From the IMG/VR virus record IMGVR_UViG_3300050139_000325, positions 1-41,715 of that record: 41,715 nt of DNA. The stretch is one strand, 5' to 3'. The notes beneath the pieces are model-generated. The model was not told where the DNA came from. It saw only the letters and a program-made list of their open reading frames with translations, and made no database searches. This document shows, one piece after another, positions 1 to 41,715 of the stretch (position 1 is its first letter; each line of letters begins with the position of its first letter). This DNA comes from a virus. Both the position numbers and the translations under genes were made by a program.

Positions 1-880
1 GGTACTGTCCTAATTTGCTTCTCGCATAAGTTCAGAAAGTGACCAAAGGTGATCGGTGACACCCGCGGCCATGGCCGGAGTGACCCTTAATGAGCTATGA
101 ATCCTGACAAAATTATAATGGGCAAAATGCAGGGCAACGGCTGCCTTGAGGTTATCCAATTTCTTGCTAAAGGCATTGGTTAACCGAGTGAAGCGGCGCA
201 TCTGCATCCGCATGGTCAGGTTTTGCCTTTCGATATATGAGGTTGAAATCTTAGAAACCTTGGGATTACCGATGATAACCCTACGCTCCGCGCTAACCAC
301 GCGCGGAGGCGAATACCTACCAGCGCCAATCGGTTCCGCCTCGTACGCTTTTACCACTTGGCCGTAATCCACTTCCCTGCCAAACGTGGTTTCCACAACC
401 TCTATATATGCCTTAAGGGAGTCGCTGCTTAATTGAATCCGGTTATCCAGGCGGGAAGACAAGTCATCAATAAATGCCTGGGCATATTCAAAGGTGCGCT
501 TCCCGACTAAATATGTCGGTATCAATTTACTGTCGGCGTCCAGAGCCACCCAAACCCACTGATCGCCAAGTTCTTCGCGGTTATCGTCTTGCTTAAGGTG
601 GCGCTGCTTCTTCCCGACAAAGCACCAGATTTCGTCAACCTGGACGTTTTGGCATTTCAGGTTGTGCATGTAGGAATCCATCAGATTTTCGCAGCCCTGA
701 CCCACGCGGCACATTAGCCGCATGATGGTATCACGGTGAATCCCGGTCATCCGTTCAACTGAGCGGATTGAAGAACCTTCCACCAGGGCCGCTATCGCCG
801 CTTCCTGTTTCTCTTGCCTTAGAATGTTCATCTTACGGATTCCTATTGACTTAAGGGTAAATACTTGCTATCGTAAATGA
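1..880 (-). mobile_element. IS1-family-like insertion sequence (single transposase ORF); termini not resolved, right end approximate
   Basis: The transposase ORF fills 10-831. The left boundary is inferred from the point where the DUF1156 methylase reading frame (41074..) loses sense and stops (~41585-41601 = window 1-13). No convincing terminal inverted repeats were found by eye. Confidence 0.55.
10..831 (-). CDS. IS1-family DDE transposase
   Basis: 273-aa ORF with an N-terminal HTH (SIRSVERMTGIHRDTIMRL). Core motifs VQVDEIWCFVGKK, WVWVALDADSKL and STSYIERQNLTMRMQMRRFTRLTNAFSKK are typical of single-ORF IS1-type transposases. Confidence 0.8.
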   Translation of the reverse strand: MNILRQEKQEAAIAALVEGSSIRSVERMTGIHRDTIMRLMCRVGQGCENLMDSYMHNLKCQNVQVDEIWCFVGKKQRHLKQDDNREELGDQWVWVALDADSKLIPTYLVGKRTFEYAQAFIDDLSSRLDNRIQLSSDSLKAYIEVVETTFGREVDYGQVVKAYEAEPIGAGRYSPPRVVSAERRVIIGNPKVSKISTSYIERQNLTMRMQMRRFTRLTNAFSKKLDNLKAAVALHFAHYNFVRIHSSLRVTPAMAAGVTDHLWSLSELMREAN

Positions 881-4573: not shown

Positions 4574-4999
4574 ATGGATACAATTTCTGTCCAACGGCGC
4601 AGCGCAAACATGCGCGCCATCCGCAGTAAGAATACGGGGCCGGAAATGATTGTCCGCCGGCTTGTCTTTGCAATGGGATATCGTTACCGTTTGCACCGGA
4701 AAGACCTCCCTGGAAAACCCGATCTTGTTTTTGCGAGCCATCGAAAAGTTCTTTTCTTACACGGCTGTTTTTGGCACGGACACGATTGCAAGCGGGGATC
4801 GCGCATTCCTAAAACCAATATTGAATATTGGGAGAAGAAATTAGCTCGAAATAAGGACCGCGACGCAGAGAATGGGGCGGCTTTACAGGCTCAAGGCTGG
4901 AGCGTTCTCGTGATATGGGAATGTCAAACCAAGGATGAACCAGCCTTAAGAATCCTCTTAAAATCCTTTCTCGAACCGCAACCTGTCACTTCAAATTAG
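4574..4999 (+). CDS. vsr: Very-short-patch repair endonuclease (Vsr)
   Basis: SANMRAIRSKNTGPE, RLHRKDLPGKPDLVF, LFLHGCFWHGH and SVLVIWECQ match the Vsr family. The ATG follows the HNH gene stop directly. Confidence 0.9.
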   Translation: MDTISVQRRSANMRAIRSKNTGPEMIVRRLVFAMGYRYRLHRKDLPGKPDLVFASHRKVLFLHGCFWHGHDCKRGSRIPKTNIEYWEKKLARNKDRDAENGAALQAQGWSVLVIWECQTKDEPALRILLKSFLEPQPVTSN

Positions 5000-5091
5000 G
5001 ACACTACCCAATCATGCGCCGTAGGGTGTTTGGCGACACTTTCAAGATAGCCCGGGCTTCTTTGGGGGTCAGGAGATTCAAGGAAATTTCC

Positions 5092-5277
5092 TTAATTCAT
5101 GCTGCCGTGGCAGATGAAAATAGTGCTCATCAGCAGTTTGGGCAATGGCGCCCCCAGGCTCACCAGGAACCGGCAACGCATCAAGTATAAATCTTCCAGG
5201 AAATCCCGGGTACAGGCCCAGGTCTGGAAGGGAATATAGGAAGGAATCATTCCTTGTGGTTCAGGGTTATCCCTCAT
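5092..5277 (-). CDS. Hypothetical 61-aa ORF coupled (ATGA overlap) to the gp37-like gene
   Basis: The start overlaps the upstream stop at 5274-5277. No recognisable motif. Confidence 0.3.
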   Translation of the reverse strand: MRDNPEPQGMIPSYIPFQTWACTRDFLEDLYLMRCRFLVSLGAPLPKLLMSTIFICHGSMN

Positions 5278-6350
5278 AAGGTGGGCACCTCATCCCAGGT
5301 CCGGCCATCCAGGAGGCGGCCGGCGGCTCTCTTGCCGGTGCGGGTCATAAGGGTAGGATGAACCTGTTGATGATGTATGCCGCTGCGGTTTTCTTCCGCC
5401 AAAATTGCCTCCTTTAAAAATTCCACGGTGCGCCCGTCGTTATAAACGCAAAGGGCCTTGCTTCTAAAGTCAGACCCTTCCTGCCACTCCCCCCAGCTTT
5501 TGAAGAAGAACGGCACCCCTGCCAGCTGGCAATCATCCAGGAGTTTCCGGGGGATATCCGGGTGCATGGGCCGGCCGTGAGGGCCGGTCTCGCCGCCGCA
5601 GATGACCCAATCAAGGGTTGCCGGAAAATCAGAATGATTCACAAAACCAAAGCGATCATCCCAATAGCCGCCGTTAAGAACATCGACCTTATGCTTATTG
5701 GGCCATTGTATTTTTTCTAAATCCACCAGCCCCAGCCCCGGCTCCACGCTCACCCCGTGCAGCACCCCGGGGATCTGCAAGAGGAACGGCAGGCGGAGAT
5801 CCGCCATCTCCTGGTTTTCGGTGCTGGTCATGATCATGAGGCGCCGGGCCAGGATGCTTTGATGGTCACCGCCATTCAGCAAGATAAGATTCGGATAACA
5901 TGTCTGAAAATATTTCAAAGCTCGTTCTGGCCGTTTGGTGCAGATGATGTAAAAATGCTGAGGGTGGGTCAAAATCCTGAGCATAACCGAGGTGATAAAT
6001 TCTTCTTCCACCCCTGGATGAAACAAGTCATTCCAAAAGGTGTAGACCTGGGGCTTCCGGGCCCGGCCGATCTTGTCCAGGTCCTGCCATTGGGGGCGGA
6101 CTGTGCCGGTAAAGCGGCCGGTGGCATCGGTGAGACCGCTATAGCGGGCTTTGATCTTGGGGTTGTGCTGATAGCCGGCCCGGTGAGTCTTCTCGGCGCT
6201 CCAGCAGTGTGCGCATCCGGGGGACACCGGGGTGCAGCCGGTCACCAGGTCCAGGCCTCTATCCCACCAGCGGCCTTGGGAGAGATGGTCAAACATGGCG
6301 ATTTCTCCGGCAAACCATGCTTTTTCCCCGGCGCTTTTGTAGATCGGCAA
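5274..6350 (-). CDS. Phage Gp37/Gp68 family protein (DUF5131)
   Basis: WWDRGLDLVTGCTPVSPGCAHCW (three-Cys motif near the N-terminus) and FWNDLFH are typical of Gp37/Gp68 proteins. The alternative start ATG 6296 (MFDHLSQ) would give an ATGTTTGA overlap with the upstream ORF. Confidence 0.75.
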   Translation of the reverse strand: MPIYKSAGEKAWFAGEIAMFDHLSQGRWWDRGLDLVTGCTPVSPGCAHCWSAEKTHRAGYQHNPKIKARYSGLTDATGRFTGTVRPQWQDLDKIGRARKPQVYTFWNDLFHPGVEEEFITSVMLRILTHPQHFYIICTKRPERALKYFQTCYPNLILLNGGDHQSILARRLMIMTSTENQEMADLRLPFLLQIPGVLHGVSVEPGLGLVDLEKIQWPNKHKVDVLNGGYWDDRFGFVNHSDFPATLDWVICGGETGPHGRPMHPDIPRKLLDDCQLAGVPFFFKSWGEWQEGSDFRSKALCVYNDGRTVEFLKEAILAEENRSGIHHQQVHPTLMTRTGKRAAGRLLDGRTWDEVPTL

Positions 6351-6564
6351 GGAGTTTTTTGGTGCCCCGCTGCCAGCAGGGATCGCAAAGGGCTACCCGG
6401 TGGCCGTCGCTTTCAAAGGCGATCGTGGCCTCATTGCCGCATTTGCACCAGCCTAATTCCGGTTTCAAGGCGGGTTGATAATCCGGGATTAACTCTTCTT
6501 GACAATGGGGACATCGAAAATAATCCTCAAAATGGGCTTCGCATTCCGGACATTTGCCGCTCAT
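6289..6564 (-). CDS. Small double zinc-ribbon protein (~91 aa)
   Basis: CPEC...CPHC...CKC...CDPC cysteine pairs. RBS GAGGGG precedes ATG 6564. The longer ORF-track start at 6618 is unlikely. Confidence 0.5.
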   Translation of the reverse strand: MSGKCPECEAHFEDYFRCPHCQEELIPDYQPALKPELGWCKCGNEATIAFESDGHRVALCDPCWQRGTKKLLADLQKRRGKSMVCRRNRHV

Positions 6565-6580
6565 CAGGTTACCGCCCCTC

Positions 6581-6727
6581 TTAAAAATCGATTCCGGGCA
6601 AAGGCGCCCAAGGTGCATTGAGGATGGAGGACAAGGCCAGGGCGGCCAGGATAAAGACCAGGAAGATGAAAACGGGACCCGGCTCGCTTTCCAGCCAGAG
6701 CCACCACCGGCTCAAGATTTGGTGCAT
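6581..6727 (-). CDS. 48-aa single-TM micro-protein (tentative)
   Basis: MHQILSRWWLWLESEPGPVFIFLVFILAALALSSIL..., with RBS AGGAGA upstream. Internal start of the 132-aa ORF-track entry. Confidence 0.35.
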   Translation of the reverse strand: MHQILSRWWLWLESEPGPVFIFLVFILAALALSSILNAPWAPLPGIDF

Positions 6728-6822
6728 GGGTTTCTCCTGTGCAGGCGTTTTTTGGCTCGTTTGGCCATGGTGGCCATACCGATCCAGATCCCCAGGATCA
6801 ATCCGGCGAGGAATCCCCACAT
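6712..6822 (-). CDS. 36-aa single-TM micro-protein (tentative, below the ORF-track size cut-off)
   Basis: Own translation: MWGFLAGLILGIWIGMATMAKRAKKRLHRRNPCTKS, preceded by GGAGG (6827-6831). Confidence 0.3.
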   Translation of the reverse strand: MWGFLAGLILGIWIGMATMAKRAKKRLHRRNPCTKS

Positions 6823-6983
6823 GGGGCCTCCTTGCCGCCTTTGAGTAATCGCAACCGGTTTTTTTGGGGCGGCTCATCCCACAGGTCGATGGGGGTCGGG
6901 TCACCACCGGCCTTGGTGATGGTTTCTTGCATCTCCCGCATGATCCGCCGGACGATGGTCCCGGCTGCTTCCGGTTCACTCAT
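6798..6983 (-). CDS. Hypothetical 61-aa protein
   Basis: RBS GGGAGAAG upstream. The start overlaps the stop of the upstream 54-aa ORF (ATGAGTGA). Confidence 0.35.
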   Translation of the reverse strand: MSEPEAAGTIVRRIMREMQETITKAGGDPTPIDLWDEPPQKNRLRLLKGGKEAPCGDSSPD

Positions 6984-7140
6984 GGCTTTTCTGCTTCTCC
7001 CGAGGCAGCTCCTGATCCCGATAATGCCAGCTCAGCTCGAAGCGCAGGGCCCCCAGAATCGAGATTCCGGATGCTGACCGGAACGGCGCCGGCGGCGTAG
7101 GCCAGGCTTTCCTTTTTCCGATACATCGACTTTGCAGCAT
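6976..7140 (-). CDS. Hypothetical 54-aa protein (internal start of the 106-aa ORF-track entry)
   Basis: RBS AAAGGAAC before ATG 7140. The longer ORF would begin inside the -35 box. Confidence 0.3.
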   Translation of the reverse strand: MLQSRCIGKRKAWPTPPAPFRSASGISILGALRFELSWHYRDQELPREKQKSHE

Positions 7141-7266
7141 GGCCTGTTCCTTTAAGGGTTCCCGGCGGCGGCCAGCGCCGCCGGGGTTGAAGGTTGGGGG
7201 ATAGAAAAAACTTTTTTGTTCCCCAGGCGCTGCCGGGGGTGGGTTGATGCGCTTTGCTGAATAGGG

Positions 7267-7296
7267 ATAATACAGAAGGCTACGGATAGTTGTCAA
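7267..7296 (-). promoter_or_regulatory. Near-consensus sigma70-type promoter for the leftward gp37 operon
   Basis: The minus strand reads TTGACA (7296-7291), an 18-nt spacer, then TATTAT (7272-7267). It lies directly downstream of the terminator at 7331-7353. Confidence 0.6.
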
Positions 7297-7330
7297 GCAA
7301 AAAATATCCGCCCACGATTATTTTTTAGAA

Positions 7331-7353
7331 TAAAAAAGCGGCCCGGAGGCCGC
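7331..7353 (-). terminator. Rho-independent terminator closing the repressor / AT-rich cassette operon
   Basis: Minus strand GCGGCC-TCCG-GGCCGC (7353-7338) followed by TTTTTTA. Confidence 0.8.
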
Positions 7354-7403
7354 ATGATAGGGAGGATGCAGAGCTTTAAGTAATTTGATTCCTTCCGGCT
7401 CGC

Positions 7404-7961
7404 CTATCCAATGGTTGGTGGTGACTGTTTATTATCTAATTTCCAAAAAATGAAATAGAAATTCGTGATATTACGGATATTAAGTGCAATGACATGAAAC
7501 ATCAAAAAGATATTAATGCTAATAATTATCTTATAATAAGATATAAAGATGCCATTCATCCAAGAAAGATAATAAATGAGATTATAAGCCAGTGTGAAAA
7601 ATTCAACCAAAATCACATAAATAAAAGTAATCAAAATTAATTGATAACCATGGATAGGTTTATTCCCAATTTTTCGATCAGTTTCCATTTTGCGTAATAT
7701 TTCAAAACGTTGACCAGATTCCGAAGAGAGAATAGTAACCGCAGTAATGGAAAATCCGACGAGAATTGCTAAAAAATTAATAATATATCCAATAAATGAC
7801 CCTAATTTTTCCAGATTTATGTTAGTAAGGATAAATAAATTAACAAGGATGGCGCATATCAAGGGCATAGCTAATTCGAAATAAGCTTCATTGCGCTTTA
7901 AAGTTCTAAAATAATCAGTGATGGGGTATAGAAATTCGAGATAAAGGTCTTGAAAAATCAT
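7404..7961 (-). CDS. Four-TM membrane protein (185 aa), candidate effector of a RexB-like / Abi module
   Basis: Four hydrophobic segments: AMPLICAILVNLFILT, FIGYIINFLAILVGFSITAVTIL, YQLILITFIYVILVEFFTLAYNLIYYL, IFISYYKIIISINIFLMFHVIALNI. Strongly AT-rich, with an ATGA overlap to the upstream gene. Confidence 0.8.
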   Translation of the reverse strand: MIFQDLYLEFLYPITDYFRTLKRNEAYFELAMPLICAILVNLFILTNINLEKLGSFIGYIINFLAILVGFSITAVTILSSESGQRFEILRKMETDRKIGNKPIHGYQLILITFIYVILVEFFTLAYNLIYYLSWMNGIFISYYKIIISINIFLMFHVIALNIRNITNFYFIFWKLDNKQSPPTIG

Positions 7962-8836
7962 AAGCCATCCATAATTGAAGCCAAGCGGTCGATGAAAGCA
8001 TTACTTTCAACAATACCTGTAGCTTCATCTATTCCTGTAGATATATATTCTATCTTCTTTATCAGATCGGTGTCAAGTAAAATGGAATCTCCTTTGGCGT
8101 TTAATCCATGAATTCTGATTTTTTCAATGTTAGAAGAATTAGCTGCAAATTTATGATAGATTTCTATCAGGGTTTCCTTAATCGATTTCTTCTTTTTGGC
8201 CTTAATAATCAATTGTAGAGTCTCTTGGACCTCTTCAGTTCGAGAAGATAGATTTAAAAAAGGGGACCCCAATAATTTACGATCCATGAAGATTTCTCCT
8301 GCCATAGCTCTATTCAAATTATTCAACTCTTTTAAAAAATTATCCTTTGCGATAATATTGAAACTGATGCTATATTTAATCTTATCATCGATGTCTCGGC
8401 GCATTAGCCATAAATAATGCGATAAATATTCAATAACATTTCCAATACTGATTCCGCTCCTTCTATCTTCTTTTATTAAGATAGCTTCTCTGTCTTTATA
8501 TTTTATGACAATATGAGTTTTTTCTGATTCACCTTCGTTCAGAGTTTTTGGATTGTCTCTTTCCGAGGCAGATTCTTTATCGATCAAAGGAGGCCGATGA
8601 TAATATTTACCAGATTTAAAAATTAATTTGTGGGCACCACCTTCAAAAAGAGCATAGTCTATGAGGTGAAATTTATGATTTTTGAAAAGATCATAGACTC
8701 TATCGCTTTTATCAAGATTAACAATATAATCAATAACATCCTTAATAATAATAGGGTCTGAAACCATATGTGACGGAGTGGATAAGTCATTGACGATCAA
8801 AGAATAAAAACCAATTTTCCTCTTAGCAATGCTCAT
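7958..8836 (-). CDS. Uncharacterised soluble protein (292 aa), candidate sensor of a RexA-like / Abi module
   Basis: Uninterrupted ORF in very AT-rich DNA, where random long ORFs are rare. RBS AAGGAGG upstream. No TM segments or catalytic motif recognised. Confidence 0.8.
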   Translation of the reverse strand: MSIAKRKIGFYSLIVNDLSTPSHMVSDPIIIKDVIDYIVNLDKSDRVYDLFKNHKFHLIDYALFEGGAHKLIFKSGKYYHRPPLIDKESASERDNPKTLNEGESEKTHIVIKYKDREAILIKEDRRSGISIGNVIEYLSHYLWLMRRDIDDKIKYSISFNIIAKDNFLKELNNLNRAMAGEIFMDRKLLGSPFLNLSSRTEEVQETLQLIIKAKKKKSIKETLIEIYHKFAANSSNIEKIRIHGLNAKGDSILLDTDLIKKIEYISTGIDEATGIVESNAFIDRLASIMDGL

Positions 8837-8907
8837 GATTCCTCCTTAAATCATATTTCTTTATTGTCTCTTTAAATCCTGGATGAAAAAAAAGAGAGTT
8901 TCTCCTG

Positions 8908-9177
8908 TTAAATTGGGGGCAATTCTTGATTGCAATAGCGGCAAATTTTGGCTTCCGACTTAATTAATTCGGCGCAGAATGGGCATTTTTTCATGCCTTC
9001 CGAGATCGATTGGCGTTCCAATTCCGCCTGGTCTTTTTTAATTACCAGGGAATGTGGCAGGGCCACAATGAACAGCAGCGCCCCATATAGCCACCAGGCT
9101 ACGAAATTTCTTCCCTTTGATTGGGCGATGGCCGCCGGAATCAAACCGATCAGCACGGCTAAAATCAATACCCCCAT
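8908..9177 (-). CDS. Small membrane protein with C-terminal zinc ribbon (89 aa)
   Basis: Two TM segments (VLILAVLIGLIPAAIA, FVAWWLYGALLFIVALP) plus CPFC...CRYC. RBS GGGAGG lies immediately after the repressor stop. Confidence 0.7.
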   Translation of the reverse strand: MGVLILAVLIGLIPAAIAQSKGRNFVAWWLYGALLFIVALPHSLVIKKDQAELERQSISEGMKKCPFCAELIKSEAKICRYCNQELPPI

Positions 9178-9193
9178 GATTTTGCCTCCCTGG

Positions 9194-9670
9194 TTAATCC
9201 AAAATGGAAAGATAGCGTTTCACCATAGCCTTATCTGGTTTGATCCGGTCCTCGACACAGTCATTATATACTCGGAAGATCAGCCGGAACTTTTGCGCCT
9301 TCTGAAGGGTTTTCTTTTCATCATTCACCTCTTCTTCAACTTTCGAAATGCAGTCACTCAACAATTCAAAATCTTTCGAGGCCAGAGGCCTGGCCTTGTC
9401 GGATTTGGGGGCGATTTCTTGTGAGGTTTTAGCAGGTTCTTCCCCAAAGATAATCCAATCTAACGATCGTCCGAAGGCATTTCTGATGGCGAGGCAACTT
9501 TTCAAGCCTGGAGAGGTCTCGCCCGTTTTCCATCGGGTTATAGCTCGCTGAATGCCAATTTTCTCATTGAATTCATTCTGATCATTGAGGCCCTCTTCTC
9601 GCATCAATTTCCCAATTCTCTCAAGAAATTTTGCCAGCCATTCTGGGTCTTTAAAAAAATTATCCGTCAA
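9194..9670 (-). CDS. CI-like XRE-family HTH repressor (no peptidase domain)
   Basis: The HTH EFNEKIGIQRAITRWKTGETSP...LAIRNAFGRSLDWIIFG matches the Cro/CI pattern. TTG start. Sits at the immunity position, divergent from the early genes. Confidence 0.7.
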   Translation of the reverse strand: MTDNFFKDPEWLAKFLERIGKLMREEGLNDQNEFNEKIGIQRAITRWKTGETSPGLKSCLAIRNAFGRSLDWIIFGEEPAKTSQEIAPKSDKARPLASKDFELLSDCISKVEEEVNDEKKTLQKAQKFRLIFRVYNDCVEDRIKPDKAMVKRYLSILD

Positions 9671-9716
9671 CGGTTAAATTATCCTCTTGACTAATATCCG
9701 CTGCGTGTATTATCCT
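9661..9716. promoter_or_regulatory. Repeated (A)TTATCC/TATCC boxes with a candidate rightward promoter
   Basis: TATCC at 9661, 9680, 9695 and 9711; ATTATCCT at 9678-9685 and 9709-9716. TTGACT at 9687-9692 with TATTAT/TATCCT 15-18 nt downstream. On the minus strand the boxes read GGATAAT (-10-like). Confidence 0.4.
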
Positions 9717-9743
9717 AATTCTTAGGACCCCAAGGAGGCGAGT

Positions 9744-10001
9744 ATGGCTGAAACCGAAATTGTTGCCCACTTGCGATTTGCCCCGGAGAGTCTGGATTTG
9801 CTCCGTAAATTCCGGGAAGATTTGATCATTGTGCACCACGCCTTGGGCGAATCGCCGGAAGGGAAGGCGGCCTTCGAAAGGTTTATTACGAGCCTTGCCG
9901 GGTCATTTGAAAAGCTCCTTGAAATCTTTCAGGAGGCGCCGGGCCTCGGCGAAACCGTCATTGGTGAGTTCGATTCTGGCGCCGCAAAGGCAGGCGATTG
10001 A
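9744..10001 (+). CDS. Hypothetical 85-aa protein at the cro position (uncertain; its 3' end overlaps a convergent ORF)
   Basis: Strong RBS AAGGAGG 5 nt before the ATG. No HTH recognised. Confidence 0.4.
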   Translation: MAETEIVAHLRFAPESLDLLRKFREDLIIVHHALGESPEGKAAFERFITSLAGSFEKLLEIFQEAPGLGETVIGEFDSGAAKAGD

Positions 10002-10106
10002 ATCACCGGCCTGCTTTTCCGAGAGGTTATGTTCGGAAACGGCGCCACACTTCGGGCAAGTGAAGGCTCCGATAATGCTCAGGTCTTTGCCGATTTTATA
10101 AGTCAA
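9903..10106 (-). CDS. 68-aa zinc-ribbon protein
   Basis: MLTYKIGK...CPKC...CLC pattern. RBS AAGGAA before ATG 10106. The longer 110-aa form is unlikely. Confidence 0.5.
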   Translation of the reverse strand: MTYKIGKDLSIIGAFTCPKCGAVSEHNLSEKQAGDSIACLCGARIELTNDGFAEARRLLKDFKELFK

Positions 10107-10142
10107 CATTGTAGTTCCTTTATAAACGAAGCACCCCGGGGC

Positions 10143-10221
10143 CGCCATCCGGCCGTTCCGGTGATAGTGCCCGCCATCGGGTGGGATTAGGCCCGCCAAG
10201 ACTCGGCCCCGCCCGATGGCG
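10143..10221. promoter_or_regulatory. Three copies of a 10-mer CGCCATC(C/G)GG (two direct, one inverted): candidate operators
   Basis: cgccatccgg at 10143-10152, cgccatcggg at 10172-10181, cccgatggcg (exact reverse complement) at 10212-10221. They lie between the divergent starts at 10106 (-) and 10263 (+). Confidence 0.5.
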
Positions 10222-10262
10222 ATTTGGAATAACAATTTAGCACAGCGGATAAGGATAACACA

Positions 10263-10526
10263 ATGAAATATCTGAACCCGGCGCAGAGCAATTATCTCAA
10301 GGGCCTCGTGAGGATGCGGGGCGAGACCACCGTGTCTCTGGCCGCCAAATTGGGGCGCCCCTGGTCCACGATCTATGGCGTGATCAACGGTAACCGGGCC
10401 AATCCTGAGGCGCGCCAGGGCATCGCCGCCTTCCTGGGCATGACGGTGGAGGAATTGTTTCTCCAGCAGCCCCCGGCAGAGATGGTCGGCGGGGCCGGTT
10501 CAGATGAATTAGCCGTGAATGAATAA
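10263..10526 (+). CDS. Ner/Cro-like HTH DNA-binding protein
   Basis: YLKGLVRMRGETTVSLAAKLGRPWSTIYGVINGNR...IAAFLGMTVEELF resembles Mu Ner / Nlp-type HTH proteins. Confidence 0.65.
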   Translation: MKYLNPAQSNYLKGLVRMRGETTVSLAAKLGRPWSTIYGVINGNRANPEARQGIAAFLGMTVEELFLQQPPAEMVGGAGSDELAVNE

Positions 10527-10593
10527 GGATGGGGTTTCGCATGCTTAAGAGGATAAACCCAACCAGCCCCGGCTACTATCCAAAAGTGACAGG

Positions 10594-10630
10594 CCCGAAA
10601 CCCGCGTGGTTATCGGGTTTTATTTTTTTT
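10594..10630 (+). terminator. Rho-independent terminator after the Ner-like gene
   Basis: CCCGAAAC / GTTATCGGG stem (one bulge), 7-nt loop, then TTTTATTTTTTTT. Confidence 0.7.
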
Positions 10631-10640
10631 GAGTTTTCAG

Positions 10641-10696
10641 TGGACAATTGGAGTTCCAAATCTTCGGGTTTGGACAATTGAGAGGGCTATTGTCCC
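10641..10696. promoter_or_regulatory. TGGACAATTG boxes (two direct, one inverted partial copy)
   Basis: TGGACAATTG at 10641-10650 and 10671-10680, exactly 30 bp apart. ATTGTCC (inverted GGACAAT) at 10690-10696 abuts ATG 10697. Confidence 0.55.
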
Positions 10697-11041
10697 ATGA
10701 CTGTCCAAAATAAATTGTGGTCCTGCGGGAGTAAAGGATTCTGGGCCGATATCGACCGCTCCATCAGCTTTCTGGTGCGGGACCTGATCACCGGCCGGGA
10801 CGTGGTGCGTCTGGCGAAGGCCCTGAAAGACGCCGGAATCGAGCGGTGTTCGGACTCACTCCTCTACAAATGGGCCAACCCGAATGCCGAACAGCGCCCC
10901 TCCCTGAAAGCCTTCCTCCTCCTGGTGAAGATTTGCGAGGACTGCGGCCCGATTGAATCCATCAATGCGGCCTGCGGCAAGATTGGCGTTCCGGACGATG
11001 ATGTTTTGGAGGGGATGAAGTTTTTTTATGGCCGAATTTGA
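10697..11041 (+). CDS. Hypothetical early protein (114 aa), possibly regulatory
   Basis: ORF directly downstream of the repeated boxes. No firm motif. Confidence 0.5.
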   Translation: MTVQNKLWSCGSKGFWADIDRSISFLVRDLITGRDVVRLAKALKDAGIERCSDSLLYKWANPNAEQRPSLKAFLLLVKICEDCGPIESINAACGKIGVPDDDVLEGMKFFYGRI

Positions 11042-11149
11042 GAAGCGGGCGCGGCTCCGGCAGCCGGAGGGTTTAAGGACCACAGGCGGGACGCCTGTGC
11101 CACTGGACGCCTGCCCCACCAGGACGCCGGCGCCACTGAGGCCGGGGGC

Positions 11150-11374
11150 ATGAGCGGGCTTGCTCCGGAATTGACGGACGCCCTGGCCTGGCTGGATTAT
11201 TGCCTGGAGGAGGCTGAGGCGGCCATGGGGGCGGTGAAGGCGGCGGCGGCAATTCTCAGGGCGCTTCCCAGCCGGGAAAGAATGAATTTCCATGCCGTCT
11301 ATCTGAGGTCCGCGGAGCTCACGACCCTCAGGATGCTCTGTGCCCGAATTGGTCAGCGGGAAAAATATTCATAG
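11150..11374 (+). CDS. Hypothetical early protein (74 aa)
   Basis: ORF in the early operon. A possible 41-aa ORF (11028-11153) is coupled upstream by an ATGA overlap. Confidence 0.4.
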   Translation: MSGLAPELTDALAWLDYCLEEAEAAMGAVKAAAAILRALPSRERMNFHAVYLRSAELTTLRMLCARIGQREKYS

Positions 11375-11381
11375 GTGAAAT

Positions 11382-11633
11382 ATGCAGCCCGGGAAGATTA
11401 ATCAATTCAAATGCGACGGCTATAGGGTTTGGCTAACTCCCTGGGGATGTATAGAAAACCAATTATCTGAATACTGTTTACCGGGATTTCCCTGTGAGAC
11501 TTGTGAGGAAACGGGCCTGATCATAATCGCTTTCCCGAAAGTTCCTAAAAAACCAAACCCAAGAAATCGCTCCCGGCCTGGCTTAAGAACGCCTCCCCGG
11601 CGGTTCGCCGATCCTATGCCGGAGGATGAATAA
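11382..11633 (+). CDS. Hypothetical Cys-rich early protein (83 aa)
   Basis: ORF with C-x-n-C spacing (CDGY...CIEN...CLPGFPCETCEE) and a basic Pro-rich tail. Confidence 0.45.
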   Translation: MQPGKINQFKCDGYRVWLTPWGCIENQLSEYCLPGFPCETCEETGLIIIAFPKVPKKPNPRNRSRPGLRTPPRRFADPMPEDE

Positions 11634-12092
11634 TTGAAAATCCTTATTCGTCTCATCTCGATTATTCTCTTTCTCTGCCCCACCGCGGCCCTGGCCTGGC
11701 CCTCGACGCCGCCCCGGATCGGCCACCTGGTGCTCAGCCAGGAATATTGGGGGTACATCATCGAGGCCGCCCACGATTATGATGTGAGCCCCTATATCAT
11801 CCAGGGGGTCCTGGCCATCGAGAGCCGCTATGATCCGTGCGCCACCTCCGGCCGGGGCCGGTGCATCGGCCTGATGCAGCTTGACCGGGGTGTGGCCCGA
11901 CTGCTCCAAGTGAACCCCCTGGGATCCTCGGGAGAATATCCGGGGCGGGGCCCAGGTTCTGGCGCGGCTCTTGAAAAGCACGACGGCAATCTGCTTCTCG
12001 CTGTGAGGGAGTATAACGGCACCGGCAACCGGGCCTATGAACGAGAGGTTATCCGGGCCGTGAGGCAGGCGGAAAGGGGCGAAAAGCAGTGA
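11634..12092 (+). CDS. Secreted lytic transglycosylase (SLT domain) with an internal compensated frameshift
   Basis: Signal peptide MKILIRLISIILFLCPTAALA. Catalytic AIESRYDP...GLMQL and the C-terminal REYNGTGN motif are in frame. The conserved DPRENIRGGAQVLARLLK block is encoded in the +1 frame at 11923-11976. Confidence 0.8.
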   Translation: MKILIRLISIILFLCPTAALAWPSTPPRIGHLVLSQEYWGYIIEAAHDYDVSPYIIQGVLAIESRYDPCATSGRGRCIGLMQLDRGVARLLQVNPLGSSGEYPGRGPGSGAALEKHDGNLLLAVREYNGTGNRAYEREVIRAVRQAERGEKQ

Positions 12093-14707
12093 GCAAATTA
12101 CTGCAACTGCGCCCCGATCCGGCCGAGCACGTCGCCGCCACCCTGAAATGGCTGCATCCGGGAGATGAGGTATTCGAGATCTGCCTGATCTCGCCACCCC
12201 AGGCCGAAAACCGGCAGTTATGGGAAGGCCGGGCCTTCGGGAAGAAGCGGATCGTGGCCGGCTGGTTCCGGGACAAGGAGAAGGCCGCCGCCCTGGTGGC
12301 CCAGGTTAAGGCCGAGGGTATCTATCTGACCCTAAATCCCTGCCAGGAAAGCCTCTTGGGGCGGGCCAATGAACGCCTCAAGGCCAACGCCGACCGCAGC
12401 AATGACAAGGATATGGCGGGATTCCGGAATCTGCTCATCGACGTGGACCCGAAGCGGCCGGCGGGCGTGAGCAGCTCCGATAATGAACACGAGTTAGCCG
12501 TGCTCTTCGCCCAGCAATTAAAGACCGACCTGGCTGCAGCCGGCTGGCCGGCGCCCCTGGTGGGCGACTCGGGCAACGGCGCCCACCTGATTTACGCCCT
12601 CGAACTGGACAATACCCCCGAAAATACCGAGTTACTCAAGGGCGTCCTGGGCGCCCTGGGGCAGCGGTATGCCGCCAAGCTGGCGGAGTGCGGGCTGGAT
12701 ATCGACGGCAAAAATTTCAACGCCGCCCGGCTCTCCAAACTCTACGGCACCCAGACGCACAAAGGCGATCACACAACCGAGCGGCCGCACCGATGGTCGC
12801 GCATTGTCGAGTTGCCGGCTGAGCGCGCACCTGTGTCCCTAAAACTACTCCAGGACCTGGCGGCGTCTGTTTCGCCGCAGGCAAGTGGCGGAAGTGGCGG
12901 AACTTTACGCCACCCAGGAGAAGAAAAGGGGAAAGGGTTTTTTGACCTGGCGGCGTACCTTGACCACTATGGGGTGGAGGTCTTGAAGGTGAAAGAGCAT
13001 GGCCGCGGCCAGTTGTCATGCCTGGCGCAATGCGTCTTTGACCCGGCCCATAATAGCAATGAGGCGGCAATCGGCCAGGCGGTCGACGGCAAGCTCTTTT
13101 ACCAGTGTTTTCATAATTCGTGTCAGGGCCGGACATGGACCGAGGCCCGGGCGTTGATCAGCCACAGCGATAAGCTGGGGCAGTTTATGGTGGGCGGGAC
13201 ACCGGCCCCAGGGAAACGCCGGGGCAATTCGCAGGTGGTGGGCGGTGGGAAGGCCCCAGGGACGCCCCCGGCGCCTCCAGGCGCGCCGCCCACCCAACCG
13301 GCCACCGAAGGCTTCTCCTGGTCAGATTGGGGCAATGCCCGCCGGCTGGCGGACTTACACGGCCAGGATTTGCGGTTTAACCACCTCAACAAGGAATGGT
13401 ATTACTGGACCGGCCGATGCTGGGAGGTGGACAACTGCGGCGAGGTGGTGCGCCGGGCCAAAGCGACGGTGGAAAGTCTCTATGATGAGGCCCGGGGATT
13501 GGAATGGGAGTCCGAGACGCGTCAAAAGCTGTTCAAATTCGCCCTGAAATCGGAGGCCTCCGGGCAGATTGCCGGGATGCTGAACCTGGCAAGGAGTGAG
13601 CCGGGTATCCCGGTATTGCCGGAGGAGTTCGACGCCGATCCGTGGCTGTTCAACGTGGCCAATGGCACCATTGATCTCCGGACCGGGAACTTACGAAAAC
13701 ACCGGCGGGAGGATCTGCTCACCTGCCTGTCGCCGGTGGCCTATGATCCGGAGGCGACCTGCGAAAATTTTGAGAGATTCTTGTTTGAGGTTATGGGCGC
13801 TGGCCATGATCAGGAAACGGCAGCGCGGGCAGATGATCTCTCATATTTTTTGCAGCTTTCCTTCGGCTACGCCCTGACCGGCGATACCCGGGAGGAATGT
13901 TTTTGGATGTTCTGGGGCGCCGGGGCCAACGGCAAGGGCACCCTGATGCACTGTATCAGCCACATTTTTGGCACGTATTGGCTCAATGTCAGCACTGAAA
14001 CCCTGCTGGCCAAGGATAATCCCGGGCAACAAATCCGCTCGGATGTTGCCCGGTTGGCCGGGCCGCGGCTGATTACCGCGGCGGAGATCGATAAGGGGCG
14101 AAGGCTTTCAGAGTCTCTGGTTAAGGGGTTCACCGGACAAGATACGGTTACTGCAAGGTTTTTGTATGGCAAGGAATTTGATTTCGTCCCCAAATTCAAA
14201 CTCTTCATCGAGACGAACAATAAACCAATTATCAGGGATTTAACCAACGCCACCTGGCGCCGGCTGAAGCTGGTGGAGTTCCCCATGGACTTCCGGAAGA
14301 ACCCGGACCGGGAATTGGGAACGAAACTGCGGGCCGAAAGCCCCGGCATCCTGGCGTGGCTGGTCCGGGGTTGTCTGGCCTGGCAGGAGACCGGCACTCT
14401 TTCTGAACCAGATTCCGTCAAGGCGGCGGTGCAGGATTACCGTGACCAGATGAATCCCTTGAAGGATTTCCTGGAGGCGAAGTGTCTCATTGCGCCGGAA
14501 TTGACTACCCCCGCCGCCGATCTCTATGGAGCTTATTGCGATTGGGCTGAGACTAACCTGCAAAAGAAGGAACGATTGACCAAGCGAGCGTTTGGCCTGG
14601 CCCTGGGAGAGCAGGGCTTCAAGAACCACGCCGACAATGGCAGAGAATTGAAAGGGACGGCGGGCGTGCGGCTTTGGCGTGGCCTGGGGTTGAGAACAAT
14701 TGAGTAA
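12089..14707 (+). CDS. Bifunctional primase-polymerase (AEP) / D5-P4-family helicase
   Basis: N-terminal prim-pol features (IYLTLNPC, LIDVDPKRP, GDSGNGAHLIY). C-terminal P4/D5 NTPase with Walker A GAGANGKGT and the NKPI / WRR motifs. Confidence 0.85.
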   Translation: MSKLLQLRPDPAEHVAATLKWLHPGDEVFEICLISPPQAENRQLWEGRAFGKKRIVAGWFRDKEKAAALVAQVKAEGIYLTLNPCQESLLGRANERLKANADRSNDKDMAGFRNLLIDVDPKRPAGVSSSDNEHELAVLFAQQLKTDLAAAGWPAPLVGDSGNGAHLIYALELDNTPENTELLKGVLGALGQRYAAKLAECGLDIDGKNFNAARLSKLYGTQTHKGDHTTERPHRWSRIVELPAERAPVSLKLLQDLAASVSPQASGGSGGTLRHPGEEKGKGFFDLAAYLDHYGVEVLKVKEHGRGQLSCLAQCVFDPAHNSNEAAIGQAVDGKLFYQCFHNSCQGRTWTEARALISHSDKLGQFMVGGTPAPGKRRGNSQVVGGGKAPGTPPAPPGAPPTQPATEGFSWSDWGNARRLADLHGQDLRFNHLNKEWYYWTGRCWEVDNCGEVVRRAKATVESLYDEARGLEWESETRQKLFKFALKSEASGQIAGMLNLARSEPGIPVLPEEFDADPWLFNVANGTIDLRTGNLRKHRREDLLTCLSPVAYDPEATCENFERFLFEVMGAGHDQETAARADDLSYFLQLSFGYALTGDTREECFWMFWGAGANGKGTLMHCISHIFGTYWLNVSTETLLAKDNPGQQIRSDVARLAGPRLITAAEIDKGRRLSESLVKGFTGQDTVTARFLYGKEFDFVPKFKLFIETNNKPIIRDLTNATWRRLKLVEFPMDFRKNPDRELGTKLRAESPGILAWLVRGCLAWQETGTLSEPDSVKAAVQDYRDQMNPLKDFLEAKCLIAPELTTPAADLYGAYCDWAETNLQKKERLTKRAFGLALGEQGFKNHADNGRELKGTAGVRLWRGLGLRTIE

Positions 14708-26676: not shown

Positions 26677-29329
26677 TAGTCTCGGGAGCTTAGTAGCCAA
26701 GCTGGTGGCGGATGTTACCGACCTGAAGAAAGGGTTGCTGGACGGCAAGGGGGAGCTGGCGGGGTTCAAGACCTATGTTTCCGATACGGTCAGCCAGGTC
26801 AAGGGCCTGCTGAAGTTCGCCGGCGTGTCCCTGGGCTTCTACGAACTCATCTCCCAGGCCAAGGAATTCGGCAAGGCCATCCTGGAGGAGGGCGGCAAGG
26901 TCGAGTTGCTGCGGGCCTCGGCCGACGCTATCGCCAACTATTACGGAATGTCGGCCGCCTCGGTTGAAGTCTATATTGAGAAATTGAAAGAGAAGGGCAT
27001 CACCGAGGCCAGTGCCTACCAGGCCACCTCACAATTTCTCAAGGCCGGGATCTCCGTCGATAAACTGCCGCAACTGGCTGATGACGCCAAAGTCCTGGGC
27101 GCCTCCATGGGGTTGCCGCTGCAGGAGGCCTTCGACAAACTGGTGCAGGGCATCGTCAAGGGCACCCCCAAGCAGTTGGCCGAGATGGTCCCCGGCATCA
27201 AGGAAGTCTTGCAGTCCATGTCCAGCGAGACTAAAAAACTCCTGGACTCCAGCATCATCTCAGGCACCGAAAAGGCCGAGATTCTCATGAACGCCACCCA
27301 TGCCATGGCTGAAAAGCTCAAGGGCTCGGTGGATAGTGTCAGCGACTCTTATTATACCAAGCTCAATGAATATAAGGCCAAGGTGGCTGAGGTCAAGGAG
27401 GCCCTCTTTGCGCTGGTCAAGCCTATCGGCATGGCCATTACCCAGGAGGAGATTAAGTCCTGGGATGATTTTTATAGTGCGGTGGGCAAGAACAAGGCGG
27501 CCTTGAAGGAGTTGGGCGAGACCATTGCCGGTTATGTGACTGAGATCGGCAGTTGGGCCAGGTCCATTGCCAGCTTTGCCGCCCAACATAAGGACCTGAT
27601 CGGCTTTCTGATTGAAATTAGGTTCCTGGTCGCGGCCATGAAATGGACCGGCATTGCTGCGGGTGCCGAGGCGATTAGCGCCGTGCTGGTCAAAGTCGGC
27701 TTGCTGCGAGTCGCCCTTTCCGGCCCCTGGCAACTGGTGATCGTTGCGACTTTAGTGGGAGCCGATCTGGTCATGAGGCAGGCCGCGGCGCTGTCAAAGA
27801 CGCACCCGGAATATGTCGGGGGCGCCGAATGGGTTCCCTCCGAGGAATATAAGGCAGGGGGCCTGGCGGCGGGCCGGAAGGAGCAGGACCAAGCCTTTAT
27901 TGCCTCTCATAAGGGCCTTAAAGCCGGGGCGGTATCGCCTTTTGGCGGCTTGAATCCCACGGATGAGGAAAGGGCCGCGCAGGCTAAAAGGGAAGCCGAA
28001 GAGGCCCGCAAAAAGGGTGCGAAAGATCACGCCCTGCCAGGAGGCGGCGGCAAGGGCGGCGGCGGGGCGGAAGAGGATATCCTGGGCGAGCACATGAAGG
28101 CCCTGGAGGCCCAGCGCAAGGCCGACCTGGCCGCGGCCGCGGACCAGATACAGCTCCTGAAGGCCACCCTGGATCAGAAACGGGCGCTCCTGGCCCAGGA
28201 CCTGGCTACCGGGAAGATTGACGGGGCCGAGTATTACCAGAAATTGCAGGACCTGGAAAAACAGGAAACCGCCGCCGCCCTGGCCGAGATCGCCAAGAAG
28301 CGCCAGGCGCAAAAAGCCGCTTATGCCGATGAATTGACGGTATTGGCGCAGCAGCAAGCCCAGGGGAAGTTTAGCCCCGAAATGGGCGCTGAGAAGAGCG
28401 CCGCCCTGGCCGCCAAGAACCGGCAGGAAATGGCCAAGCTCGACATGGATGCCGCCAAGACCAAGCTGGACGGTGAAAAGAAAATCACCGAAGAACTGAC
28501 CAAGCAACTGGAACTCAAAAAACAATATACCCAAACGACTGAAGATCTGAACATGGAGACGGCGCAGCTCATGGGGGCGATTTCCTCCCAGGAGGCCACC
28601 CTCCAAAAACTCGTACTGGACTGGAAGCGCACCAAAGCCGAGGCCTTTAAGGCCGGGGTCATGGACCCCAATTCCCCGGCTTTTGTCCCTGGCTATGGGG
28701 CGGCCCTGGACAAAAATTTGGAGGCCAAGAAGACCGACACCCTCTACGGGGGTTACTCCACCCAGATCACCCAAGGAATTTCGTCACTGGTGGACTCCCT
28801 GACGGCCGGCGGCCAGGACCTGCAAAAGGTGGCCAATAACATGTTCAAGGGCCTGTTTAACGAGGCCCTGAAGCCGGGTCTGGATCAGCTCAAGAATCTT
28901 TTGACCCAAGGTTTCAAGGATGTGTTCGGGGCGTCTGGAGCCGCCATTTCCAGTGCGGTCATGGGGGTCATCGGCCTGGTGGGCATGCTGCTCACCAGCA
29001 GCAGCAAAAGCTCCTTCTCGGCCTCCGGGGTACAGTCCGGCGTCACTACCCATGAGGCGGTGCGTGGGGTCATCGCCGGGCAACAGTCCGTGGCCATTGC
29101 CGATATCGCCACCAGCCTGTCCGATGCTCTGCTGCCCACCAACGATGTTTTGAGCCAGATCGAGATTAACACCCGGGGCGGCCTCAAGGCGAGCGTGGCC
29201 CCGGCAAACATGAATGTCTCAATCTCCATGGCTCCCTCGGACCTGGTGAGCGCCATCAAAGATGCAGTGAGTCAGGCCATTGCCGCTTATTTCGCCAATG
29301 GCTTAATGAAAGGCGGGGCGACAGTTTGA
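26666..29329 (+). CDS. Tape measure protein (887 aa)
   Basis: Longest tail ORF, following the chaperones. Has a central TM-like segment and extended Ala/Lys/Glu/Gln coiled-coil stretches. Confidence 0.85.
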   Translation: MADDSLGSLVAKLVADVTDLKKGLLDGKGELAGFKTYVSDTVSQVKGLLKFAGVSLGFYELISQAKEFGKAILEEGGKVELLRASADAIANYYGMSAASVEVYIEKLKEKGITEASAYQATSQFLKAGISVDKLPQLADDAKVLGASMGLPLQEAFDKLVQGIVKGTPKQLAEMVPGIKEVLQSMSSETKKLLDSSIISGTEKAEILMNATHAMAEKLKGSVDSVSDSYYTKLNEYKAKVAEVKEALFALVKPIGMAITQEEIKSWDDFYSAVGKNKAALKELGETIAGYVTEIGSWARSIASFAAQHKDLIGFLIEIRFLVAAMKWTGIAAGAEAISAVLVKVGLLRVALSGPWQLVIVATLVGADLVMRQAAALSKTHPEYVGGAEWVPSEEYKAGGLAAGRKEQDQAFIASHKGLKAGAVSPFGGLNPTDEERAAQAKREAEEARKKGAKDHALPGGGGKGGGGAEEDILGEHMKALEAQRKADLAAAADQIQLLKATLDQKRALLAQDLATGKIDGAEYYQKLQDLEKQETAAALAEIAKKRQAQKAAYADELTVLAQQQAQGKFSPEMGAEKSAALAAKNRQEMAKLDMDAAKTKLDGEKKITEELTKQLELKKQYTQTTEDLNMETAQLMGAISSQEATLQKLVLDWKRTKAEAFKAGVMDPNSPAFVPGYGAALDKNLEAKKTDTLYGGYSTQITQGISSLVDSLTAGGQDLQKVANNMFKGLFNEALKPGLDQLKNLLTQGFKDVFGASGAAISSAVMGVIGLVGMLLTSSSKSSFSASGVQSGVTTHEAVRGVIAGQQSVAIADIATSLSDALLPTNDVLSQIEINTRGGLKASVAPANMNVSISMAPSDLVSAIKDAVSQAIAAYFANGLMKGGATV

Positions 29330-41073: not shown

Positions 41074-41588
41074 GTGAGCATCGAACGGCGTTTTGACATC
41101 CCTCTTGTTGCCGCCCTGGCCCTCAAGGAAAAACAGATTCAACAGAATTACCGCCCTATTATCGCCGTGCATAAGTGGTTTGCCAGGCGGCCCGGCACGC
41201 TTTTTCGGGGCCTGGTTTTATCGGAGTTTGGCAATCGCCCCCTAAGCGAGAGTTTTTTTGAGGCCAATGATTTCCCCGAAAAGACTGTTGCCGATCCCTT
41301 CATGGGTGGCGGGACGCCGTTGTTGGAGGCTAACCGCGTCGGCTGCGAGGTGCTGGGCTGCGATATCAACCCTATGGCCGCTTGGATTGTCCGGGAGGAA
41401 ATCGAACATCTTGACCTTAAGGCCTACCGTTTAGCTGCCAATACCTTGATTGAGAACCTAATGGCGGAGATCGGCACGGCCTACCGCACCGATTGCCCGA
41501 TCTACGGCGACAGCGATGTGCCCGTGAAATACTTCCTATGGGTAAAGACCCTCGATTGCGAGCAATGCGGGCATGAGTTTGATTTGTT
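41074..41588 (+). pseudogene. DUF1156-type DNA methyltransferase, N-terminal ~171 aa only, truncated at the IS junction
   Basis: VHKWFARRPGTLFR (DUF1156 signature), the SAM motif DPFMGGGTPLLEANRVGCEVLGCDINPMA, and a CEQCGHEF zinc site. The frame runs into the IS sequence and stops at 41599-41601. Full-length homologs are several-fold longer. Confidence 0.75.
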
Positions 41589-41715
41589 GGTACTGTCCTA
41601 ATTTGCTTCTCGCATAAGTTCAGAAAGTGACCAAAGGTGATCGGTGACACCCGCGGCCATGGCCGGAGTGACCCTTAATGAGCTATGAATCCTGACAAAA
41701 TTATAATGGGCAAAA
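41589..41715. repeat. Exact 127-bp copy of window positions 1-127 (terminal direct repeat)
   Basis: Base-by-base identity from GGTACTGTCCTAATTTGC... to ...ATTATAATGGGCAAAA at both ends. Confidence 0.97.

Follow-up and report, generated by a model that had tools for sequence, protein, structure and literature searches.

Rex-type systems pair a soluble protein with a four-transmembrane protein. A 2026 paper counts five Rex-like systems (lambda, Sbash, CarolAnn, Butters and Pseudomonas putida), of which those of lambda and P. putida are among the characterised analogues (PMC12894663). The N-in, C-in topology with four transmembrane segments has been published for RexB and for Sbash gp31, and the gp31 loop mutants R70A and D73A abolish defence (PMC6426596). 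Sbash gp30/gp31 and gp44/gp43 of Gordonia phage CarolAnn are prophage two-gene systems of a soluble protein and a four-transmembrane effector with an essential central cytoplasmic loop. RexABpp (PP_5643/PP_5644) of the Pseudomonas putida prophage P1 is a further characterised Rex-type system, and it was also used as an analogue. In this study, we analysed a two-gene cassette in the virus record IMGVR_UViG_3300050139_000325 of IMG/VR, a stretch of 41,715 nt that is called the window here and on which the positions of both genes are given. Gene A encodes a soluble protein and gene B a four-transmembrane protein (Table 1). Our preferred reading, to which we give a probability of roughly 65%, is that the cassette represents a divergent phage-exclusion (abortive-infection) module of RexAB type and forms AT-rich cargo within the immunity region of a phage that is probably temperate. 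Most probably, the cassette is distantly related to the classic Rex system and belongs to the RexAB-type systems as a divergent member, rather than forming a new kind of defence.

The RexAB-type reading is favoured because the gene order, the translational coupling and the place 3' of the repressor mirror cI-rexA-rexB of phage lambda. In both cases the first gene encodes a soluble protein of some 280-290 aa and the next one, on the same strand and likewise 3' of the repressor, a four-transmembrane protein. The isoelectric points of the soluble proteins are basic and close to each other (8.4 for A, 8.6 for RexA). The two loci also differ. A and B overlap by ATGA, the start codon of B (7961-7959) and the stop codon of A (7960-7958) sharing these letters, whereas the lambda genes are 15 nt apart. 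An unrelated 89-aa gene stands between the repressor and A in the window. B is longer than RexB (185 versus 144 aa) and has an extra N-terminal helix (residues 8-20) and a hairpin in its loop (residues 93-104). The original prediction, made from the letters of the window, had offered two options, a divergent Rex-type system or an undescribed pair of sensor and membrane effector. The first option gained support from the fold and the profile alignment of A, from the topology of B and from the match of B to Sbash gp31. The second was set aside in favour of the known RexAB type.

The A model was built with AlphaFold2 on an alignment of 34 sequences (predicted local distance difference test score, pLDDT, 81.6; predicted TM-score, pTM, 0.70). 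When the model was compared with the PDB by Foldseek, the best matches were the two chains of lambda RexA, 8TWQ_B (E 1.3e-8) and 8TWQ_A (E 1.5e-7), both with a probability of 1.0 over 303-304 columns. The next match had an E value of 0.026, and none other was below 1e-3. The modelling thus showed A as a soluble protein with the predicted fold of RexA, which is RdgC-like and has two domains. The protein has no hydrophobic segment, its highest 19-residue Kyte-Doolittle mean being 0.84, which agrees with the earlier statement that the first product lacks a transmembrane segment. The paper on the RexA structure describes a fold family of RexA, RdgC and IML3-CHL4, the last being yeast kinetochore proteins (PMC11077077). 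Against BFVD, the A model matched a phage RdgC (E 7e-5), in direct agreement with this fold family. A therefore shares the RdgC/RexA scaffold, but RdgC was absent from the 50 best PDB matches of A, where RexA stood on top, and RdgC has no membrane partner gene. Weak matches to chain N of two CCAN kinetochore complexes (7xhn_N and 7qoo_N, E about 0.07-0.12) were also found in the PDB, and this chain may be the counterpart of IML3/CHL4. Four uncharacterised phage proteins were matched in BFVD at E values from 1e-15 to 1e-9. The best BFVD matches of A and of B came from one virus, 'Siphoviridae sp. ctylc9'.

A similarity of A to RexA was also seen at the level of sequence profiles. A profile of 169 A sequences aligned with a profile of 28 RexA sequences in hhalign with a probability of 77% and an E value of 1.9e-5 over 241 columns, and the alignment paired residues 7-274 of A with residues 2-248 of RexA. 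As a control, the RexA alignment was block-shuffled 60 times and also reversed. The score was 42.7 for the real alignment, 21.4 +/- 4.1 for the shuffled ones (maximum 35.1, at most 98 columns) and 16.2 for the reversed one (z about 5). Three motifs were in register: K-x-G-F-Y near the N-terminus, L-x-[E/D]-[G/D]-E (A 99-103, RexA 82-86), and a basic strand I-K-[A/P]-K-..-[S/N]-I-K (A 211-220, RexA 190-199), so that the lysine-rich strand 209-220 of A was aligned to the K191-K199 strand of RexA. The aligned identity was about 15%. The profile comparison showed a similarity of A to RexA that is weak but full-length. Smaller inputs gave less: the earlier alignment of 34 A sequences against the RexA profile reached 12% (E 0.0024), hhalign of the A profile against the single lambda RexA sequence was not significant, and hmmsearch with the A profile against the PDB sequences found nothing relevant.

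Among the 34 homologues of A, the PADLOC RexA model matched one weakly and DUF6731 matched two; DUF4747 was found neither in A nor in these homologues at E<=0.01. A homologue of A in the Roseburia phage Jekyll (27% identity) is annotated as 'RexA-like protein' in GenBank. From the fold match and the profile alignment, we consider with high confidence that A is a remote homologue of RexA that lies outside the existing RexA, DUF4747 and DUF6731 models. The A family also has an invariant charged motif (R93, K97, E101, G102, H108 and E123), and at most of these positions RexA shows no identical residue that is conserved.

Four hydrophobic segments were found in B, with centres near residues 38, 66, 117 and 150. 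The earlier description of four hydrophobic helices with a charged glutamate in the third was correct; this residue is E120, and it is conserved in at least 90% of 40 homologues. Lysine and arginine are concentrated in the N-terminal segment (three residues), the central loop (six) and the C-terminal tail (two), with one in each short loop. This distribution indicates that the N-terminus, the C-terminus and the central loop are cytoplasmic, as they are in RexB. By this prediction, B crosses the membrane four times (TM1-TM4) with both ends inside (N-in, C-in), its central loop is basic and cytoplasmic, and the conserved glutamate lies in TM3. The AlphaFold2 model of B (pLDDT 86.8, pTM 0.82) contains an N-terminal helix (8-20), TM1 (23-47), TM2 (50-80), TM3 (105-135) and TM4 (143-177), and the loop 84-104 folds into a short helix and the hairpin mentioned above. 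Besides E120, conservation extends to R96 of the central loop and to a motif LNIRNITNFYF where TM4 ends.

In the library scans of B (Pfam, NCBIfam, PHROGs and PADLOC), phrog_4613, a family of unknown function, was the only match (E 3e-14), and tblastn of B against GenBank phages gave no match. The structural comparison was more informative. In BFVD, the best Foldseek matches of the B model were the uncharacterised protein of 'Siphoviridae sp. ctylc9' and a Sbash protein of 165 aa (probability 1.0, E 0.08, TM-score 0.50/0.56). In the Sbash genome (KP027201), gene 31 (28011-28508) encodes 165 aa and adjoins gene 30 (372 aa), and the agreement in length identifies the matched protein as gp31, an experimentally validated RexB analogue. 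Lambda RexB was not among the BFVD matches of B. A likeness of B to the RexB-type effectors in structure and topology is therefore supported, whereas homology to lambda RexB by sequence is not established. Of the homology searches called for by the original prediction, those with A pointed to RexA in profile and in fold, and those with B gave no significant result against lambda RexB.

The Sbash pair differs from the cassette in its soluble protein. Sbash gp30 has 372 aa (PMC11077077) and contains DUF4747, whereas A is shorter and has no match to this domain. The A and B profiles against the single gp30 and gp31 sequences also gave nothing in hhalign. By sequence, the closest family is PDC-M53 of PADLOC, which has the same two-gene architecture (PDC-M53A and PDC-M53B). 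PDC-M53A (PDLC04696) was the only named match when A was scanned directly against Pfam, NCBIfam, PHROGs and PADLOC (E 1.2e-7, 29 bits), and it covered residues 4-143 only. PDC-M53A was matched by 10 of the 34 A homologues and PDC-M53B by 12 of the 40 B homologues (best E 3.8e-6), whereas B of the window had no PADLOC match at E<=1. Because A of the window is matched in part and B is not matched, the cassette is regarded as a divergent relative of PDC-M53 and not as a formal member.

The pair was then considered as a unit. The homologue searches returned 37 hypothetical proteins for A and 41 for B, with several pairs on the same contigs. An exhaustive profile search found 613 A representatives at 50% identity with E<=1e-3, 267 of them at E<=1e-30, and all but a few of the 150 representatives listed had a length of about 290 aa. 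In the best-scoring representative (P0115, 407 aa), two separate stretches matched the profile, so that the A fold may be partly duplicated within this protein or take part in a fusion. The loci compared were the window, metagenome contigs with homologues, four IMG/VR contigs, phage Jekyll, Anaerostipes phage AC844P2 and eleven GTDB genomes. In every one of the 28 loci (22 distinct), A was followed directly on its strand by a homologue of B, with an overlap or a gap of at most 12 nt, so that the co-occurrence proposed as a check was found throughout these loci. An apparent exception (L003) was a gap in gene calling. In a metagenome-assembled genome of Verrucomicrobiae (L071, 5920-6799), A was split into two open reading frames (ORFs) of 103 and 174 aa beside an intact B; either the sensor has become a pseudogene there or the assembly is wrong at this place. 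The genes 3' of the A homologue in Jekyll and in the Anaerostipes phage were B homologues (hhalign 98-99%).

The pair occurred in Leptospiraceae, Melioribacteraceae, Ignavibacteriaceae, Thermodesulfobacteriota, Desulfarculus and Bacteroidota, and also in the cyanobacterium Nodosilinea, in Verrucomicrobiae and in phages of Roseburia and Anaerostipes (Firmicutes). In each of 22 loci its AT content exceeded that of the flanking DNA (mean G+C difference -0.14, largest -0.33), which is the signature of a horizontally mobile cassette. Its settings were diverse. It lay 3' of a helix-turn-helix (HTH) repressor on the same strand in the window and in two further IMG/VR loci (L015 and L016, with intervening genes), after the lysis genes in Jekyll and in L018, as genes 30 and 31 do in Sbash, and before the small terminase gene in L017. 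On an Ignavibacteriaceae contig (L001), it lay between a type IIG restriction-modification (R-M) enzyme and an Mrr-nSTAND3 protein. Other neighbours were type I R-M genes, phage portal genes, RhuM, a PDDEXK nuclease and an IS1595 transposase. Bare insertions were found between housekeeping genes, namely HIT/LapA and MutS (L136) and ABC transporter genes (L003). A conserved third gene beside the pair was not found among the loci examined. The results showed that A and B travel together among phages, defence islands and bare sites on chromosomes. Two local arrangements were recorded in addition. The Ignavibacteriaceae contig carries a compact defence island (4777-13648) made up of the type IIG R-M enzyme (N6_Mtase and Eco57I, 1054 aa), A-B, the Mrr_cat-nSTAND3 protein (766 aa) and Fic. 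In L005/L006 (6933-7985), a gene for a NA37 protein of 350 aa (a YejK-type nucleoid-associated protein) stands 15 nt 5' of A on the same strand, and the three genes may form a variant of the system in which a further DNA-binding component is present.

A mechanism can be proposed by analogy with lambda RexAB, Sbash gp30/31, CarolAnn gp44/43 and RexABpp. A-B would be transcribed with the repressor, or downstream of it, in the lysogen. A, probably a dimer with non-specific DNA binding, would sense a product of the superinfecting phage or a replication or recombination (DNA-protein) intermediate, and sensing A would activate B. The features of A that bear on such DNA binding are its basic isoelectric point and the lysine-rich strand 209-220. 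B might then assemble into an oligomeric channel or pore through which the inner membrane is depolarised or permeabilised. The loss of membrane potential and ATP would stop growth, and the infection would be aborted. In B, the obvious candidates for conduction and for contact with A are the glutamate within the membrane and the basic central loop. Judged by these analogues, it is rather probable that the pair would act as a defence through its membrane protein. The positions typical of phage morons, the neighbours in defence islands and the candidate status in PADLOC are the grounds on which the pair is read as a defence.

Several results weigh against the RexAB-type reading. A of the window matched neither Pfam RexA (PF15969), DUF4747 nor the PADLOC RexA hidden Markov model (HMM), and B matched neither the RexB nor the PDC-M53B HMM of PADLOC at the threshold given above. 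The whole-chain TM-score of the A model against 8TWQ was just 0.37-0.39. A differing orientation of the domains is a plausible cause, because RexA was crystallised in a closed state and its domains are mobile (PMC11077077). The RexA DNA-binding residues R219 and K221 aligned with no basic residues in A of the window, so they are not visibly kept. For B, a RexB profile of 15 members was assembled from lambdoid loci in IMG/VR, since tblastn of lambda RexB against GenBank phages returned close lambdoid copies only. The comparison of B with this profile was not significant in hhalign (probability 5.5%, E 0.007). Its score of 22.7 was above every block-shuffle (13.8 +/- 1.9), and this excess may reflect only the shared spacing of four transmembrane segments. 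The B profile against the single lambda RexB sequence was likewise not significant, and against the single Sbash gp31 sequence it gave nothing. PDC-M53 is itself a computational candidate; the literature mention found was one Salmonella comparative-genomics study, which gives no characterisation. Finally, a canonical integrase (tyrosine or serine) was not found among the window ORFs scanned. Lysogeny is for this reason read from the regulators alone; the phage is probably temperate, and expression of the cassette in the lysogen is an assumption.

Other explanations were weighed in the light of these data. A first one follows the logic described for Butters gp30/gp31, a RexA-like and RexB-like pair with reversed roles (PMC12894663). 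A would then be a toxic or antiviral effector, which B merely sequesters and silences until it is set free by infection. Besides this precedent, the invariant charged motif of A speaks for it: being for the most part without an identical conserved equivalent in RexA, it might serve as an active site or bind a ligand. However, the strict coupling of A and B by ATGA, the conserved E120 and the LNIRNITNFYF motif suggest that B is more than an anchor, and the membrane protein is the effector in four of the five described Rex-like systems (PMC12894663). We consider such an exchange of roles improbable.

The pair might also be a mobile module unrelated to defence, for example an addiction pair of toxin-antitoxin type or a module for membrane stress or transport, its fold being a general scaffold of RdgC type. 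The fold of RexA, RdgC and IML3 has been put to different uses across systems (PMC11077077), no family member was characterised in the literature found, and several loci have purely housekeeping flanks. On the other hand, in the PDB the fold of A is nearer to RexA than to RdgC, and a four-transmembrane partner is specific to Rex-type systems. The moron sites in phages, the defence-island neighbours and the PADLOC candidate status are also against a role outside defence, and we give this explanation little weight.

A third explanation places the cassette in the phage's own development, with A as a non-specific DNA-binding modulator of the repressor/Cro switch and B tuning A. Lambda RexA biases the bistable switch to lytic growth and interacts with CI and Cro independently of RexB (PMC11077077), and the cassette of the window lies directly in the immunity region. 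Nevertheless, the pair occurs at sites that have no phage switch (L136, L003 and the defence island of L001), and in other phages it follows the lysis genes, far from the repressor, so that this role has only a small chance of being the right one. The remaining candidates were dropped: for Kiwa (KwaA/KwaB, DUF4868), no Kwa match was found for A or B in PADLOC at E<=1 and the gene order is opposite, the soluble A coming first as in Rex and as had been pointed out; the Abi families had no PADLOC support; and the restriction enzyme reading stayed sub-threshold (REase_II, E 0.024).

With the RexAB-type reading, the cassette ties an uncharacterised family of several hundred clusters, partly covered by PDC-M53, to the Rex paradigm. 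The A-B family spans at least eight bacterial lineages and several phage groups, always as a compact, AT-rich and mobile two-gene unit. If the reading is true, PDC-M53-like matches gain a mechanistic label, Rex-type exclusion is widespread well past the enterobacterial and actinobacterial phages, and many divergent A/B pairs are supplied in which conserved residues can be mutated (E120 and R96 in B, E101 and H108 in A). A bolder proposal, which we regard as rather unlikely, is that A-B is a large and previously unrecognised Rex-type branch whose sensor gained an invariant charged site absent from lambda RexA and, with it, a different trigger chemistry. The proposed branch would comprise at least 613 clusters at 50% identity, in Bacteroidota, Ignavibacteriota, Cyanobacteria, Verrucomicrobiota, Desulfobacterota, Leptospiraceae and Roseburia/Anaerostipes phages. 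If so, the trigger chemistry might be, for example, the binding of a ligand or nucleotide, or catalysis, and the family would provide a workable approach to the sensing of infection by Rex, a problem that is 70 years old. The pair deserves further study because its family is large, phylogenetically broad and uncharacterised, with an invariant charged motif in A.

The features of the region are collected in Table 1. The cassette has a G+C content of 31.3%, against 56.9% in the remaining genome, and a windowed profile showed that it is the lowest-G+C window of 1433 bp in the genome, about 4 standard deviations under the mean (mean 0.562, standard deviation 0.063). The AT-rich island marks the cassette as foreign cargo. 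Every detail of the original observation that could be checked was borne out: its estimate by eye (about 30% versus about 60% G+C), the ATGA overlap at 7958-7961, the AAGGAGG ribosome-binding site (RBS) of A, the terminator, and the order on one strand 3' of the repressor and the 89-aa membrane protein all agreed with the computed ORFs and the sequence. The terminator stem reads GCGGCC-TCCG-GGCCGC at 7353-7338 (-), with six G-C pairs, and is followed by TTTTTTATT.

Table 1. Positions of the cassette, its signals and the neighbouring genes in the window.
Feature	Position	Strand	Basis and remarks
Gene A	7958-8836	-	ORF, 292 aa, soluble; predicted RexA-like sensor / DNA-binding component
Gene B	7404-7961	-	ORF, 185 aa, four transmembrane segments; predicted RexB-like effector, translationally coupled to A
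AAGGAGG RBS of gene A	8841-8847	-	Direct sequence reading; 4 nt 5' of the A start
Intrinsic terminator closing the unit	7328-7353	-	Terminator scan and sequence; 6-bp G-C stem, 4-nt loop, T-run
AT-rich island	7400-8900		About 31-33% G+C versus 57% in the genome; composition profile and genome-wide window comparison
Promoter-like TTGACA-18-TAGAAT (11/12)	8047-8076	-	Consensus scan; inside the 3' part of A, about 90 nt 5' of B; candidate
Promoter-like TTGACA-18-TATTAT (11/12)	7267-7296	-	Consensus scan; directly after the cassette terminator
HTH repressor-like gene heading the leftward operon	9194-9670	-	158 aa; Pfam HTH_3 E 8.7e-7; PHROG 'transcriptional repressor' families
89-aa membrane and zinc-ribbon gene	8908-9177	-	Between repressor and A; phrog_8436 E 2.6e-34; zinc-ribbon Pfam matches
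CII-like regulator	10697-11041	rightward	Opposite to the repressor
D5-type primase/helicase	12089-14707	rightward	Opposite to the repressor
IS1-like DDE transposase gene	10-831	-	Pfam DDE_Tnp_IS1 E 1e-8; sole integration candidate

In phage lambda, the P_LIT promoter within rexA transcribes rexB alone, and the candidate site inside A resembles P_LIT. The consensus scan of the region gave 9 sites against 8.0 expected by chance, and for this reason no promoter is claimed. The second promoter-like site (7296-7267), after the terminator, indicates that the unit is closed on that side. This candidate would restart leftward transcription into small ORFs and a DUF5131 gene (5274-6350).

On the minus strand, the order is repressor, 89-aa gene, A, B and terminator, and the CII-like regulator and the primase are divergent. 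The leftward repressor and the rightward regulator and primase form an immunity-region layout. The repressor-like protein had sub-threshold RstR/DicA-type matches in NCBIfam, besides its HTH_3 and PHROG repressor matches. Because it has no S24 peptidase domain, the earlier term 'CI-like' holds in a broad sense only. Relatives of this repressor were searched for in IMG/VR and none were found, so no cassette-free sister phage was available for mapping the insertion boundaries.

The 89-aa protein consists of two hydrophobic helices and a C-terminal CPxC...CxxC zinc ribbon. Its gene has a G+C content of 0.48 and therefore lies outside the AT island. Homologues of this gene (49-69% identity) were found in 57 IMG/VR loci, none of which contained A or B or had anything else in common with the phage of the window, and in the other loci inspected the gene did not adjoin A-B. 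It is an independent, widespread phage moron, separate from the A-B unit. In four tail-module loci inspected, the 89-aa gene was an AT-rich insert just 5' of a gene for about 1000 aa, which looks like a tape measure.

The window carries an exact direct terminal repeat of 127 bp (1-127 and 41589-41715), which shows that the phage genome is complete and closes into a circle of 41,588 bp. The phage encodes a lambda-type portal and an M15 endolysin. An ORF of 175 aa (41074-41601, +) with DUF1156 and N6_N4 methylase fragments spans the genome junction and looks truncated. The phage region of the window was also present in at least two other samples (L133 and L134).

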